Below, piece by piece: positions 7,411-26,017 of a stretch of DNA of 64,000 nucleotides; within the stretch, counting starts at the first letter, position 1; each line of letters starts with the position of its first letter. Below the pieces are notes generated by a model. That model was not told the origin of the DNA. It saw only the letters and a program-made list of their open reading frames with translations, and ran no database searches. This stretch comes from Clostridia bacterium (lineage in GTDB: Bacteria; Bacillota; Clostridia; TANB77; CAG-465). Location of the stretch: the NCBI GenBank assembly GCA_017626395.1, contig JAGAIU010000069.1, positions 34,015-98,014 on the forward strand, read 5' to 3'. A program made the translations under genes and the position numbers.

Positions 7411-9474
7411 ATGAAGGAGGCAAAATTAACATTAGATATTAATGAAAAGCCACCAGTGCTAAAATGGATAATCTTAGCACTACAACACGTTTTTGCAATG
7501 TTTGGAGCAACTATATTAGTTCCAATACTTGTAAATGCAGCAGCAGGTACTACAGTTCTTACAATACCAGTTGCACTTGTAACATCAGGAATAGGTACAT
7601 TACTTTATATTTTATGTACTAAAGGAAAATCACCAGTATATTTAGGAAGTTCATTTGCATTTATTACACCACTTGCAGTTGGGGCAGTAAAAGCAGGCGT
7701 AGGTGGAGCAATGACTGGTATGATGCTTGTTGGTATAATCTACATGATTGTAGCAGCAATAATTGCTATATGCGGAAAAGATTGGATTCACAAATTATTA
7801 CCACCTATAGTAATAGGTCCAATGATTATGATCATAGGATTATCTTTAGCATCAAGTGCGGTATCACAAATAGGAATCAGTGCTGGTACTGAAGTTATAG
7901 ATTATAAAGGTGTAATAGTAGCGTTATTTACATTCTTAGTAACAGCAGTAACTATGTTAAAAGCAAAAGGATTTTTAAAAATAATACCATTCTTAGTTGG
8001 TATGGCATCTGGATATGTATTATCTGTAATACTTGGACTAGTAGATTTTACACCAGTACTAGAGGCTGCTTTCTTTAGTATCCCAGATTTTGTACTACCA
8101 TTTATATCATATACACCAACACTTGGTGCAGCATTAACAATAGCACCAATAGCTATTGTAACAATAGCTGAACATATAGGAGATCATTCAGCTTTAAGTA
8201 CAATAATAGGAAAAGACTTAATTAAAGAACCAGGTCTTAATAGAACATTACTTGGAGATGGTCTTGCAACATTTGTAGCTGGTCTTTTAGGTGGACCTGC
8301 TAATACAACTTATGGTGAAAATACAGCAGTTGTAGGTATGACTAAAATAGCATCAGTTTGGGTTATAGGACTTGCAGCAATATTTGCAATATTACTTGGA
8401 TTTTTAGGTAAATTTACAGCACTTGTATCAACAATACCAAATGCTGTACTTGGAGGAGTATCATTACTACTATATGGATTTATAGCAGTAAATGGACTTA
8501 AAGTTTTAATAGAAAATAGAGTAGATTTTGGAAAATCAAGAAACGTAATTATAGCATCTAGTATGCTTGTATTAGGACTTGGTGGAGCTGCTATAGGTAT
8601 AGGAACAGTAACTGTATCTGGAATGAGCTTAGCAGCAGTTATAGGTGTAATTCTAAACTTATTATTACCAAAAGATGATGAAGAAGTAACAGAAGAAAAA
8701 GTAGAAAATAAAAAAGAAGAAAAAGAAGAAGCTAAAGCTGAAGTAGTTGTTGAAAATAACAAAAAAGGTAAAAACAAAAATAAAACTAAAAATGCTAAAA
8801 ACAATACAGAAGTAGTAAGAGTTGAAAAAGTAGAAGAAAAACCAAATGATAACTTAGTTGTACTAAATCATCCATTAGTAGAACATAAATTATCTATATT
8901 AAGAGATAAGAAAACAGGAACAAAAGAGTTTAGAGAATTAGTTGGAGAAATAGGAATGTTCTTATGCTATGAAGCAATGAACGATGCAGAACTTGAAGAA
9001 GTAGAAATAGAAACTCCAATACAAAAAATAGATGCTAAAAGATTAAACGAAGATAAATATGCATTCTTACCAATATTAAGAGCTGGTACAGGAATGCTAG
9101 ATGGATTAATTAAAGTAATTCCAAATGCTAAAATAGGGCATATAGGAATGTATAGAAATGAAGAAACATTACAACCAGTTAGATATTTCTTCAAAGTACC
9201 AAATGGTATAGAAAATAGAGAAGTTCTAGTTCTAGATCCAATGCTTGCAACAGGTGGCTCTGGATGTGATGCAATAGCTCAACTTAAAGAAGAAGGTGTA
9301 ACAAACATCAAATTCTTATGCTTAATTGCAGCACCAGAAGGTGTAGAAAAAATGCAAAAAGAACATCCAGATGTTAAAATATACTGTGCAGCTTTAGATG
9401 AAAAATTAAACGAAAAAGGCTACATTGTTCCAGGACTTGGAGATGCAGGAGATAGAATATTTGGAACAAAATAA
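7411..9474 (+). CDS. upp: fusion protein: NCS2 uracil permease (UraA/PyrP-like), Lys/Glu/Asn-rich linker, uracil phosphoribosyltransferase (Upp)
   Basis: Single 687-aa ORF. About 420 aa are a multi-TM permease ([17 protein letters not shown]). Next is the linker [23 protein letters not shown]...[16 protein letters not shown]. Then a complete UPRT ([37 protein letters not shown]). Confidence 0.85.
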
Positions 9475-21064: not shown

Positions 21065-21105
21065 ATAGCACTAAATGTTGATATTTTTTCAATATTTGGT
21101 GCTAT
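21065..21105 (+). terminator. hairpin after the orphan argS end
   Basis: 17-bp stem ATAGCACTAAATGTTGA / TCAATATTTGGTGCTAT with two G-U pairs. Confidence 0.5.
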
Positions 21106-21119
21106 TTATATTTTATATT

Positions 21120-21157
21120 AGAAGAAATAAAGTATTCGACTTTATTTCTTCTTTTTT
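21120..21157 (+). terminator. intrinsic terminator
   Basis: AGAAGAAATAAAG / CTTTATTTCTTCT stem plus TTTTT. Confidence 0.7.
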
Positions 21158-21332
21158 GACACGTTTTAGACCCTATTTTTATTTTGGATATAAACAAACG
21201 TTTGTTATAATATACATCGTAAAAGAAAGGAGGCAAAAACAAAATGGGATAGCAAATAAGAAGATGTTACATGTAGTAACAAATAAAATCAAAGTAAAAA
21301 ATGTTAAATGAAAGGGAGGAAACGAATGAAGT

Positions 21333-22462
21333 TAGAAGAGTACAAATCAGGCAAAGCTATAAAGATGAATGATTATAAAGCATTTATACCAAGCAAAATA
21401 AATTATAATTGGGGCTGGGATGATACTAAACTAGATAAGTTGTTATCAGAAGCTAATAGACAAATTGGTGAATTAAATGCTTATTCATTATTAATACCAA
21501 ATGTAGATTTATACATTAAAATGCACGTAAAAATTGAAGCTAATAAATCTAGTAAAATTGAAGGAACAAAAACAACAATAGAAGAAGATTTATTAGATGT
21601 AGAAGATATTGCTCCAGAAAAGAAAGATGATTGGGAAGAAGTACAAAATTATGTGAAAGCAACAAATTATGGAATAGAAAGAATAAAAGAAGGCTTTCCA
21701 GTATGCACAAGATTAATTAGAGAAATTCATGGAGTATTAATGAATGGAGTTAGAGGAGAACATAAAACTCCTGGAGAGTTTAGAACGTCACAAAATTGGA
21801 TTGGTGGCAGTATGCCAAGTACAGCTGTGTATGTCCCACCACCACATACTGAAATAGCGGAATGCTTATCTGATTTTGAGAAGTTTATGAATAATGAGGA
21901 GATAGATACTCCAGATTTAATTAAAATTGCAATTTTACATTATCAATTTGAATCTGTACATCCTTTTTTAGATGGAAATGGTAGAATAGGAAGACTATTA
22001 ATACCATTGTATATACAAAGTAAAGGTATGCTTGAAAAACCTTGTCTATATATTTCAGATTATATTGAAAGAAATAAAGAAGTATATTACGATAAACTTA
22101 CGAAAGTAAGAACTCATAATGATCTTATTGGCTGGATTAAATTTTTCTTGGAAGTAATAATTGAAACATCAAAAGCTGCAAAGGAAAAATTTAGAAGAGT
22201 TGTTGAACTAACTATAGAAATGGATAAGATTATAATGGATTTACCTGTAAAACCAGAAAATGCAAAGAAAGTAATAGATTTACTATATAATGAACCGATT
22301 GTATCAAGAAAGAAAATAATTGAAAACACAGGAATAAAGTTTACAACTTTAGTAGGAGTAATAAGAGCTTTTCAAGAAAAGGGAATTTTGATAGAAACAA
22401 CAGGATATAGTAGGAACCAAGTTTTTTCATTTCAAATATATATAGATTTATTTTTAAAATAG
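21333..22462 (+). CDS. Fic family protein (AMPylase-type) with N-terminal inhibitory motif and C-terminal wHTH-like region
   Basis: Active-site HPFLDGNGRIGR. Upstream SSKIEG fits (S/T)xxxE(G/N). ATG 21333 has RBS AGGGAGGA. Confidence 0.85.
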
Positions 22463-22466
22463 AGTT

Positions 22467-22855
22467 TATATTACGAAAAAATCCAAAAATTCGTAATATA
22501 AAAATCCATATTACGAAAAAAGCCGAAAATTCGTAATATAAAAATTTATATTACGAAAAAAGCCGAAAATTCGTGATATAAAAATCTATATCACGAAAAA
22601 AGCCGAAAATTCGTGATATAAAAATCTATATCACGAAAAATCAAGAAAATCTGTGATATAAAAAATTATATCACGAAAAAAGTGATATAAAAAAATATAA
22701 GGCGAAAAATACTAAAATTTCGTCCTACAGAAAAGTATAGGCCGAAAAATATTAAAAATCCGTCCTACAGAAAAGTATAGGTCAAAAAAAGTTAAAAATT
22801 TGCCCTATAAAAAATTATCGGTCAAAAAAGAGCAAAATTTTAACTTATAAAACTA
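22467..22855. repeat. tandem array of ten dyad-symmetric units (nine of 40 bp, one of 29 bp)
   Basis: Units start at 22467, 22507, 22547, 22587, 22627, 22667, 22696, 22736, 22776 and 22816. The prototype is TATATTACGAA-aaaagccgaaaa-TTCGTAATATA-aaaat. Units degenerate progressively rightwards. Confidence 0.9.
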
Positions 22856-22872
22856 TATATTATAATAACCGC

Positions 22873-22907
22873 AAAAAAGAAGGAATTTATTTTCCTTCTT
22901 TTTTTAT
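22873..22907. terminator. bidirectional terminator between the repeat array and the TetR gene
   Basis: AAAGAAGGAA / TTCCTTCTTT stem flanked by an A-run and a T-run. Confidence 0.75.
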
Positions 22908-22910
22908 TTG

Positions 22911-23444
22911 TTAATAATCTTTTCCTTTATATTCCATATCTAAGATTTCTACCATTTCTTCTGGGCTTTCTTTACAATCATTACTTAACCATTTCTTTAT
23001 TATAGCATTAAGACCAGCTTTAAAAAATTCTATATGATAATCTATATGTTTGTTGTTATAATATTTTTCTGCTAGTTCTGTGTGAAATTGATTAGTAGGT
23101 GGATTAGCATCAAATTTTAATTTAAAATATGTTCTATAAAATATTTGATTTTCTTTTATATGTTTAAACATTTTTAAATAGCTAGTTGGATTTTGTCCAG
23201 CTTCTGCATCATTTATATACATATCTGCAAATTCTTTTTGCATTCTAAGATTTACTTTATCTACTAAATCATATATATCTATATAGTTAGCATAGAAAGT
23301 AGAACGGTTTAAATTAGTACGTTTACAGATGTCTGAAACAGTTATTTGTTCGACTTCTTTAGTTTGTATAAGTTGTATAAATGCTTTTTCTATTTTCTCT
23401 TGTGATTCTCTTTTTCTTTTATTATTTGGTGTATTCATAAACAT
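22911..23444 (-). CDS. TetR/AcrR family transcriptional regulator
   Basis: 177 aa. N-terminal HTH is ITVSDICKRTNLNRSTFYANY. Confidence 0.85.
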   Translation of the reverse strand: MFMNTPNNKRKRESQEKIEKAFIQLIQTKEVEQITVSDICKRTNLNRSTFYANYIDIYDLVDKVNLRMQKEFADMYINDAEAGQNPTSYLKMFKHIKENQIFYRTYFKLKFDANPPTNQFHTELAEKYYNNKHIDYHIEFFKAGLNAIIKKWLSNDCKESPEEMVEILDMEYKGKDY

Positions 23445-23540: not shown

Positions 23541-23559
23541 AATGAAAGGAGTGAATTAT

Positions 23560-23778
23560 ATGGGAAAATTAAAAGATGTAAACAAAAAAATCGAAGAGAC
23601 AGTAGTAGGTGGATACAAAAAGATTGAAGAAACAGTTGTAGATGGATATAAAAAAGTTGAAGATACTGTAGTTTCAGGATACAAAAAGGTAGAAGATAAA
23701 TTTGTTGACAAATTCTTAAAAAAAGATGGCGAAACTGTAGAAGAAGCTAAAGAAAGAATTAAAAAAGAACAAGAATAA
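23560..23778 (+). CDS. miniprotein with tandem 11-residue repeats
   Basis: 72 aa: KKIEETVVGGY / KKIEETVVDGY / KKVEDTVVSGY / KKVEDKFVDKF, then ...ETVEEAKERIKKEQE. RBS AAAGGAG. Paralog at 25778-26017. Confidence 0.65.
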   Translation: MGKLKDVNKKIEETVVGGYKKIEETVVDGYKKVEDTVVSGYKKVEDKFVDKFLKKDGETVEEAKERIKKEQE

Positions 23779-25777: not shown

Positions 25778-26017
25778 ATGAGTAAAATAAGAAATGCAAA
25801 TAAAAAGATAGAAGAAAAAGTTGTTGGCGGATATAAAAAAGTAGAAAATACAGTTGTTTCTAGTTACAAAAAAATTGAAGATGAATTTGTAGATATGTTT
25901 TTAAGAAATGATAATGAAACTATAGAAGAGGCTAAAGAAAGAATAAAAAAAGAACAAGAAGAATTAAAAAAGAAAAATGAAGAACTTGTTAGAAAAAGCC
26001 AAGAAAGATATAAATAG
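25778..26017 (+). CDS. miniprotein with 11-residue repeats (paralog of 23560-23778)
   Basis: 79 aa: KKIEEKVVGGY / KKVENTVVSSY / KKIEDEFVDMF, then the identical EEAKERIKKEQE block. RBS AAAGGAG. Confidence 0.65.
   Translation: MSKIRNANKKIEEKVVGGYKKVENTVVSSYKKIEDEFVDMFLRNDNETIEEAKERIKKEQEELKKKNEELVRKSQERYK

Follow-up and report, generated by a model that had tools for sequence, protein, structure and literature searches.

We analysed a 64,000-nucleotide stretch of a Clostridia bacterium genome (contig JAGAIU010000069.1; the whole stretch is called the window below), in which a fic gene of the SoFic type is followed directly by a tandem array of palindromic units at 22467-22855. The array is a real, gene-linked, conserved and undescribed non-coding part of this defence gene. 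Its half-sites change in sequence in step with the recognition helix of the winged helix-turn-helix domain (wHTH) at the C-terminus of the adjacent Fic protein, and for this reason the units are most likely Fic's own binding sites. As the specific form of this reading, suggested by sequence comparison, we consider it moderately probable, with a chance slightly above even, that the array would serve as tandem cognate dimer-binding sites for the Fic wHTH, with one dimer per unit.

By sequence inspection, the array comprises nine units of 40 bp and one of 29 bp, each built as an 11-bp inverted repeat (arms TATATTACGAA and TTCGTAATATA in a perfect unit) around a 12-nt A-rich centre and followed by a 6-nt A/T linker. 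Tandem Repeats Finder called a period of 40 in two stretches, 22467-22682 (5.4 copies, 89% match) and 22691-22829 (3.5 copies, 82% match), and together with the sequence itself these calls bear out the unit lengths and boundaries given in a first-pass annotation of the same DNA. A 34-nt consensus with at most 3 mismatches matched four times in the window and not once in 100 shuffles, and the matches of a covariance model built from the units were confined to 22461-22855 across all 64 kb. The array starts 5 nt past the fic stop codon (22460-22462) and ends 17 nt short of a bidirectional intrinsic terminator (22873-22904, no strand assigned; AAAAAAGAAGGAA-tttatt-TTCCTTCTTTTTT, a 13-pair stem and then a T-run), at which the fic unit and the convergent TetR gene both end. 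The array occupies the gap between the fic stop and the shared terminator, as had been noted before. The terminator forms the outer edge of the feature, outside the repeat, and is also present in the syntenic locus L004 (related loci are designated by L and a number). Since the arms alternate in the order A-12-A'-6-A-12-A', a second hairpin register, with 28-bp palindromes of the form A'-6 nt-A, can be read as well. The register with the 12-nt centre is supported by the pairing of the right arm, which is better with its own left arm than with that of the next unit (61 versus 24 cases), and by single-unit loci, which also show the 12-nt-centre form. No Rfam family matched at the gathering score in the window, in a permissive scan of 22300-23000 or in seven related loci (the sub-threshold matches were only microRNA and CRISPR-DR55 noise), and no literature match was found, in line with the earlier statement that no described element has this architecture. 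The array lacks the variable spacers of a CRISPR array, its units abutting through the 6-nt A/T linker.

To place the array in a wider context, about 110 loci were collected by exact-protein look-up and by a metagenome scan with a Fic alignment. The window Fic has thousands of close relatives, all of them from human-gut metagenomes. Every relative with downstream sequence (53-100% Fic identity, about 105 loci) carries 1-10 units, which begin 3-7 nt past the stop codon of fic or, where an insertion intervenes, as much as 75 nt past it. Conservation of the array extends to Fic proteins of only 53% identity and spans gene contexts of at least six unrelated kinds (sigma/peptidase...TetR; ASCH-DUF4238 upstream with ParB and a recombinase downstream; SMODS/AGS_C; YhcG and RhuM; radical SAM; enolase; cysteine desulfurase), and none of the roughly 60 distinct contexts is without a unit. 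While the promoter context of fic varies (its own promoter or various operons), the 3' array is constant. Among 67 distinct arrays of 1-10 units, that of the window is the longest; three units (28 arrays) and two units (19) are the most frequent lengths. The geometry is rigid, even at 53% Fic identity: of 208 units, 202 are precisely 40 nt long, and the centre spans 12±1 nt. When 300 kb of related loci were searched with Infernal, 104 of the 105 matches at E<=1e-5 lay directly behind fic.

The linkage to Fic, one of the points that the annotation had put up for checking, is strict across contexts. The linkage to TetR, put up alongside it, did not hold: a TetR gene flanks the array only in the window and in the syntenic L004, and for this reason TetR was rejected as a partner and excluded from the feature. 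The annotation had also raised a dispersed repeat without linkage to its neighbours as a counter-possibility, which the Infernal result and the restriction of the covariance model to the array within 64 kb contradict. Pattern and covariance-model searches likewise led us to reject a dispersed repeat of the REP or MITE kind, and the REP-like candidate of the annotation falls because the units are not dispersed. The array does resemble enterobacterial REP/BIME-2 elements in its alternating inverted palindromic units with two short kinds of spacer and in its 3' or intercistronic position, and it could, like them, stabilise the upstream mRNA; those elements, however, number in the hundreds, are scattered and show a link to RAYT transposases and a GTAG motif, whereas the array is unique in 64 kb, is tied to a single gene family and differs in its cores from class to class. 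Genome representatives were scanned with a strict pattern of fixed centre length, and one contig of a metagenome-assembled genome, L001, was returned; its only unit follows about 45 nt that are homologous to the 3' end of fic. In plasmid and phage collections only homologs at 31-42% identity were found, the five plasmid loci inspected lacked an array, and neither a unit nor a Fic relative was found on viral contigs. A Fic-like gene of Fusobacterium vincentii is also without an array.

The fic gene (21326..22462, plus strand) encodes a class II Fic protein of 378 aa with Pfam domains Fic_N and Fic. It matches the PADLOC SoFic anti-phage defence model over the full length (E 1.4e-116) and scores 165 bits with NCBIfam ProtAdlyltaseSoFic, under the cut-off of 550 for that family; residues 35-368 align with the SoFic structures 9tcl/3eqx of the PDB (E 1e-35). 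The inhibitory motif is SSKIEG and the catalytic motif HPFLDGNGRIGR, and the start at 21326 was chosen from homologs and from the ribosome-binding site AAGGGAGG. The C-termini of Fic proteins of two of the classes defined below, L and P, match HTH_24 (29.4 and 26.6 bits, cut-off 21.9). HTH_24 gave no match on the class F C-terminus of the window Fic, the helices of which were assigned by alignment with the class L and class P C-termini and with SoFic. The stretch 22316..22378 (plus strand, approximately aa 331-351) encodes helix 2 of the wHTH together with the turn and the recognition helix and is the hypervariable specificity segment, here of class F; the recognition helix itself, KFTTLVGVIRAFQE, corresponds to 22337-22378 (plus strand, aa 338-351).

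Alignment of Fic C-termini against the arms of their own arrays showed how this segment and the repeats are related. In 37 proteins at least 80% identical to the window Fic, column conservation was 0.9-1.0 over aa 1-300, fell to 0.62-0.63 at aa 331-350 and was 0.90-0.93 at aa 361-378. In 120 independent cluster representatives, the entropy was 1.1-1.2 bits at the helix segment versus 0.02-0.4 elsewhere. The helix forms five discrete classes among these representatives, and each class pairs with one half-site core (arm positions 5-10) in perfectly symmetric units. The helix KFTTLVG (class F) goes with TTACGA, KLTTING (class L) with TCACGA, KPTTLNV (class P) with GCACGG, PSTLKD (class PS) with GGACG(A/G), KEGT(I/V)KN (class E) with GGTCAA and STVNG (class S) with GAACGA; the deeper lineages L109, L112 and L113 hold further helix/half-site pairs. 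TTACGA is present in all class F loci (L004, L005, L035, L039, L041, L042 and L046). Conserved across the classes are the outer TATA, the inner A-tract and the wing of the protein. Proteins of different classes are 98-99.7% identical over aa 1-300 and 44-65% identical in the HTH, and the N-terminal 300 residues show no class structure. In the nucleotide sequence, identity breaks off abruptly at about codon 331. Past codon 360 it climbs back to no more than 85-93%, short of the 98-100% of the N-terminal part, and because this recovery is partial, the helix, the last codons and the array form one recombination block. The idea of helix and array as two separately conserved islands with homogenised DNA between them was abandoned, since at the nucleotide level both belong to a single block in which the intervening codons are constrained.

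The units of the window array can be read in terms of these classes, and the arm types that the annotation had described for units 1-2, 3, 4-5, 7-8 and 9 are all confirmed in the sequence (the unit groups, like the terminator, are given without strand). Units 1 (22467-22506) and 2 (22507-22546) have TTACG/CGTAA arms and together (22467..22546) provide the symmetric half-sites TTACGA, the cognate type for the class F helix; in unit 2 the outermost base is C, which leaves one mismatch in the 11-bp arm. Unit 3 (22547-22586) is a TTACG/CGTGA hybrid with a T-type left arm, a C-type right arm and a centre identical to those of units 2 and 4, and represents either a mutational intermediate or a crossover junction between T-type and C-type arrays. 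Units 4-6 (22587..22695) carry the C-type half-site TCACGA, the cognate type of class L Fic: unit 4 (22587-22626) has perfect TCACG/CGTGA arms, unit 5 (22627-22666) has the same arms with one mismatch and is near-perfect, and unit 6 (22667-22695), the 29-bp unit, is C-type with an 11-bp internal deletion. Units 7-10 (22696..22855) are decayed GG- or GGT-type units, similar to distal units in arrays elsewhere and to class PS and class E cognate sites. Unit 7 (22696-22735, AGGCGA/GGACGA) and unit 8 (22736-22775, GGCCGA/GGACGG) are GG-type with 2-3 mismatches, unit 9 (22776-22815, GGTCAA/GGGCAA) shows a CA/TG arm change, and unit 10 (22816-22855, GGTCAA/AGTTAA) is badly decayed, with 17.3 bits and E 0.82 in the covariance model. 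Elsewhere, one perfect cognate unit typically stands amid degenerate ones, and many arrays have only one perfect unit. This pattern looks like duplication turnover near the gene combined with recombination between Fic cassettes inside the arrays.

Within the units of homologous arrays the arm symmetry is maintained. In a set of 29 hand-picked units, 92% of the cells pair, versus 77% in shuffles and 28-45% for slid partners, and double changes occur in 7 of the 11 arm pairs. The annotation had concluded that pairing or symmetry is under selection, and not sequence. The symmetry is real, but this exclusion of sequence is not supported, because the half-sites are class-specific and track the helix; the favoured cause of the symmetry is recognition by a protein and not RNA pairing.

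These observations can be accommodated in a working model in which the 34-bp inverted repeat would present two identical half-sites, each with a variable core at arm positions 5-10, an outer TATA and an inner A-tract. The centres of the two cores are about 20 bp (approximately 68 Å) apart on the same face of the helix, a spacing that would suit a Fic homodimer. When the recognition helix switches specificity, both half-sites would have to change together, and the symmetric double arm changes would then be what a homodimer imposes, not the outcome of a need to keep an RNA stem paired. The segment coding for the wHTH and the array would make up a single cassette for specificity, open to exchange, at the 3' end of a gene that is conserved in its other parts. 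From the class match we infer that Fic would bind the units physically and that duplex DNA would be the bound form. As to the consequence, newly made Fic dimers may be captured in cis, and this titration would create a threshold or an off state for an abortive-infection toxin; alternatively, binding may act as an on/off switch through the C-terminal domain, or the bound protein may form a roadblock at the gene end. Among the candidates listed in the annotation, a protein-binding array of the iteron kind is now the best supported. Iterons and parS-type centromere arrays likewise place tandem sites beside the gene of the reader protein, with helix and site types that co-vary; they differ in that no replication or partition function is evident here, the locus being chromosomal and the protein an enzyme toxin.

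The closest precedents come from Fic proteins of the same architecture. The dimer of CccR, a Fic-wHTH toxin of Yersinia pseudotuberculosis, represses its own promoter at two 10-bp inverted repeats 26 bp apart, with DNA-binding helices 70 Å apart (PMC9755527). SoFic dimers bind specific DNA upstream of their own gene and AMPylate EF-Tu (bioRxiv 10.64898/2026.07.09.737422), and the activity of CbFic2 is switched by DNA binding (PMC10628234). Like CccR and the SoFic of Shewanella oneidensis, the window Fic combines Fic_N, Fic and a C-terminal wHTH with a dimerising N-terminal helix, and the array shares with their operators the long-centred inverted repeat, the spacing between its cores (about 20 bp, approximately 68 Å) being close to the 70 Å of CccR. 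Both CccR and SoFic need to be dimers for binding, and both are toxins with AMPylase activity. Their operators, however, are single sites in the toxin's own promoter that serve autorepression, whereas here 1-10 tandem copies with a 40-bp period follow the stop codon; in addition, at least six matched helix/site classes exist here, and binding is predicted from the class match. No description of tandem sites downstream of fic was found in the papers on CccR, SoFic, CbFic2 and the Sofic of E. coli (EcSofic) or in further literature searches.

A role as a promoter operator was considered and rejected. The 450 nt upstream of fic yielded no cognate half-site (the scan of this region returned 0.16 matches per locus for cognate and 0.34 for non-cognate types), so that this is not promoter autorepression of the classical kind. 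In the window, the putative fic promoter (21156..21215, plus strand; TTGACA at 21156, an extended -10 element TGTTATAAT at about 21203-21211) contains no array half-site and is preceded by two terminators at 21065-21152. It does include a palindrome, AACAAACGTTTGTT, which is the window copy (21195-21208, perfectly palindromic) of a motif found upstream of fic or island operons with any wHTH class, namely an extended -10 element followed by ACAAA(C/T)GTT(T/C)G; other copies are in L036, L057, L061, L063, L071, L076 and L099. This leader motif may be the operator for another regulator or a conserved 5' end.

Two solitary units were found outside the arrays, at 725-764 in L057 and at 1522-1561 in L099. 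The L057 unit immediately follows the stop codon of a GNAT-like ORF, and that of L099 the stop codon of an HD-domain ORF; both lie about 100 nt upstream of a promoter whose four-gene operon has fic as its last gene. The solitary unit of L057 has perfect class P arms and an inverted, T-rich centre, and the operon that it precedes ends in a class P fic; this arrangement supports the reading of the units as cognate Fic sites.

Several observations weigh against cognate binding sites. The position downstream of the ORF is unprecedented in a family in which CccR and SoFic bind their own promoters, and the 450 nt upstream of fic are, as described, free of cognate half-sites. SoFic homologs at about 40% identity do without the array (those of Agrobacterium, Picosynechococcus, Microvirga, Citrobacter and Lachnospira eligens, at 37-42%). 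A perfect unit of a foreign class is present in the array of the window (unit 4) and in that of L004 (unit 8). In 189 of 207 units it is the sense strand that carries the A-rich form of the centre, for which a symmetric dimer on duplex DNA has no obvious need; this asymmetry favours a strand-specific role. At the core positions 3-9 of the arms, G·T mismatches outnumber A·C mismatches (61 versus 38), mostly at one pair. Finally, the class match could follow from physical linkage alone, given that the helix, the last 25 codons and the array form one divergent block.

This last argument is the basis of a neutral explanation, in which the array is a palindromic satellite: an ancestral 3' hairpin would have been amplified by slippage, its symmetry maintained by quasi-palindrome template switching and its class match acquired by hitch-hiking. 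Copy number does vary between near-identical loci, a point that the annotation had put up for checking (L036 versus L039; L005 versus L041; L048/L082/L054; L090/L092/L097), and many short contigs terminate inside the array. The decay of the distal units, the internal deletions in unit 6 of the window and in L106, the location of helix and array in one divergent block and the symmetric mismatch spectrum are all consistent with such a satellite. It is harder to reconcile with the retention of at least one unit in all of the roughly 60 distinct contexts down to 53% Fic identity, with a 40-nt period and a 12-nt centre that are constant over this whole depth, and with half-site types that are discrete and conserved within each class, flanked by a conserved A-tract and TATA. 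It also leaves unexplained why the recognition helix alone is hypervariable, and in discrete types. We therefore consider a neutral origin quite improbable.

A recombination site or cassette boundary, whose hairpins would be read by a recombinase in the manner of attC or attB or would act as hotspots for the exchange of Fic cassettes and mobile neighbours, seems to us very improbable. Synteny does break inside the distal units (L015 versus L016), deletion end-points of Fic pseudogenes lie within the array in L106 and L108, arrays are chimeric in unit class, an alternative 11-6-11 register exists, and in many loci the array is abutted by a conserved element followed by genes for a ParB-like protein and a serine recombinase. 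No recombinase is consistently linked to the array, however, and the window has none close to it; attC and dif sites show neither class-specific cores nor tandem multiplicity, and breakpoints in repeats are expected from homology alone. In the two pseudogene loci (L106, at about 3427, and L108, at about 3438), fic is truncated at about aa 309-312, the wHTH-coding part is lost, and the remainder is joined directly to units; the unit of L106 has a shortened centre, like the 29-bp unit 6 of the window.

The conserved element that abuts many arrays is a second non-coding element, of the form ...AAAGGCAGGA(A/T)AG-hairpin-ACACATAGAA-hairpin..., which is absent from the window. It lies just downstream of the array in L005 (4307-4375), L012 (3812), L050 (3812), L051 (3493), L057 (3811), L062 (3831), L070 (2334), L079 (3943), L099 (3798) and L111 (3702). 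Both of its hairpins show compensatory changes (4 of 13 pairs; GAGATACA/TGTATCTC versus GTGATGCA/TGCATCAC), and no Rfam family matched it. In L005 it is followed by genes for a ParB-like HTH protein and a large serine recombinase. It could represent a structured RNA or else one end of a mobile element inserting beside the array. In L051 (identical to L079 in this stretch) and in L099, a 70-nt insertion with a G+C-rich hairpin, AACCTGACCCGAC...GTCGGGTT, lies between the fic stop and the array, within the first 75 nt, and looks like a small inserted element.

The symmetric arm changes could also be taken as a sign of RNA structure, and the annotation had used unit 3, a U-G wobble in the plus-strand RNA, in this sense. 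This argument is not supported by the comparison across 164 distinct units, in which overall G·T mismatches (85) are not above A·C mismatches (102), and unit 3 may equally be a crossover junction. Only the pair 9/26 is biased, G9·T26 being five times commoner than A9·C26. Nothing terminator-like was found by a terminator scan inside the window array. A T-rich tail follows at least one unit in 40 of the 67 arrays, and the other 27, that of the window included, lack a sense-strand T-tail. The orientation of the spacer relative to the direction of the next gene gave no clear rule: the seven convergent loci with a clear bias are all A-rich, but so are 27 co-directional loci. The rigid combination of a 12-nt centre and a 6-nt linker is unusual for independent RNA hairpins. 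Because G·T does not exceed A·C overall, because neither a terminator-like site nor a T-tail rule is apparent and because the geometry is rigid, the compensatory arm changes are probably not RNA covariation. As a general caution, tandem palindromes beside the gene of a dimeric DNA-binding protein can mimic RNA covariation through symmetric double changes.

The identity of the array as an intrinsic terminator was rejected on account of the 27 arrays without a T-tail, the 12-nt loops and the lack of a terminator-like site in the window array. An H-type pseudoknot, between the loop AAAATC and the spacer GATTTT, was rejected on steric grounds (no connecting loop) and because it is absent from arrays with A-rich spacers, the window's among them. 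A broader possibility is a 3' element of the fic mRNA that acts at the RNA level and independently of the wHTH, with A-rich-loop stem-loops serving as barriers to 3' exonucleases, as processing signals or as weak terminators in the manner of REP/BIME, and with a copy number that drifts by slippage. Such an element would be co-transcribed with fic, since the array starts 3-7 nt past the stop in every context, and a canonical terminator follows the array of the window. The A-rich sense-strand loops, the T-rich tails in 40 arrays, the bias at pair 9/26 and a folding energy well below that of shuffled sequence (z = -9.8 for the plus strand and -13.3 for the minus strand) agree with it, as do the 45 of 60 arrays that have no other terminator within 200 nt and the solitary similar hairpins at the 3' ends of two other ORFs, one of which, in L099, is followed by TATTTTTTT. 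The mismatch counts show no overall G·U excess, however, AU-rich stems with 12-nt loops make poor terminators, the window array is among those without a sense-strand T-tail or any internal terminator-like site, and the exclusive tie to one Fic clade, the class-specific stems that match a hypervariable helix and the rigid 6-nt spacing are left unexplained. On balance, an RNA-level 3' element appears unlikely.

Type III toxin-antitoxin systems use antitoxin RNA repeats of 34-45 nt. The array resembles those of ToxI, AntiQ and CptI in being made of short tandem repeats (40 nt) beside a toxin or abortive-infection gene in defence islands, in 1-10 copies as compared with 2-5.5. By analogy, hairpin RNAs bound by the wHTH might hold the toxin inactive until infection. 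The match between stem class and helix class fits the recognition of a hairpin duplex as well as that of two DNA half-sites, and the strand asymmetry of the loops fits a role as RNA. The wHTH of CbFic2 resembles Z-DNA-binding domains (Z-alpha) and moves DNA towards an A-form-like CD spectrum (PMC10628234). In E. coli, the toxicity of Sofic requires dimerisation and the C-terminal domain, and the region just downstream of the gene neutralises the toxin, while the proposed 47-aa product of this region, AS1, could not be purified (PMC12249575). Set against this, type III repeats lie upstream of the toxin gene with a terminator in between, are near-identical and are processed by an endoribonuclease of the ToxN/AbiQ type, whereas the present array is downstream, has no terminator between it and fic and is heterogeneous, with decayed distal units; its toxin is a SoFic AMPylase with an internal inhibitory helix and not an endoribonuclease able to process repeats. 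The absence of an overall wobble bias and the many arrays with one perfect unit only also speak against a Fic-binding RNA, which we regard as distinctly doubtful.

The array may go beyond a passive set of Fic binding sites. We tentatively propose, as a possibility to which we assign a rather low probability, that it is the neutralising partner of the SoFic abortive-infection toxin, a cis-encoded nucleic-acid antidote in the form of either duplex DNA sites or hairpin RNA. The antidote would catch Fic dimers through the hypervariable wHTH and keep the C-terminal domain in a position that is inactive, phage infection would release them, and the matched helix/site classes would amount to immunity-like specificity types. 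The array and the EcSofic-AS1 pair share a functional tie between a SoFic defence gene and the stretch directly behind it, and it is speculation that the two are analogous; AS1 was described as a 47-aa protein, whereas here there is no conserved small ORF, only a repeat array (PMC12249575). If true, the antidote would be a binding-site array, neither a protein nor a processed RNA, and thus categorically new.

The window itself is chromosomal, with genes for PNPase, GlyRS, LysRS and ArgRS and a G+C content of about 27%. Divergent from the TetR gene, two paralogous small ORFs of 78 and 79 aa (23542-23778 and 25778-26017) contain 11-residue tandem repeats, GYKK(I/V)E(E/D)TVV, visible at the DNA level as a 33-nt repeat at 23574-23687; the pair flanks the gene for a cation-efflux-like membrane protein and a 423-aa ORF without a Pfam match, both also divergent from TetR. 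At 7411-9474, a 687-aa ORF is an apparent fusion of uracil permease (residues 6-439) and uracil phosphoribosyltransferase (481-687). In many of the related genomes (the L012-L034 and L001 loci), a tRNA (uracil-5)-methyltransferase gene is followed downstream by a variable island that includes fic; the changing defence-type genes of the island comprise SMODS/AGS_C, the YhcG nuclease, RhuM, DUF4238, radical SAM and a further protein with a Fic domain. A pair of Fic paralogs spaced about 7 kb from each other occurs on some contigs (L048 with L110; L082 with L103).

SoFic is a widespread single-gene anti-phage defence. Recent work on how its toxicity is controlled and released points to dimerisation, to the wHTH at the C-terminus, to DNA binding and to a downstream neutraliser that is ill defined. 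The present analysis adds a conserved non-coding partner of fic, natural classes in which one helix pairs with one half-site, and the prediction of class-specific binding. If the predicted binding is true, the array would provide a handle on the regulation of SoFic and a natural case of co-diversifying protein-DNA recognition inside a defence gene.

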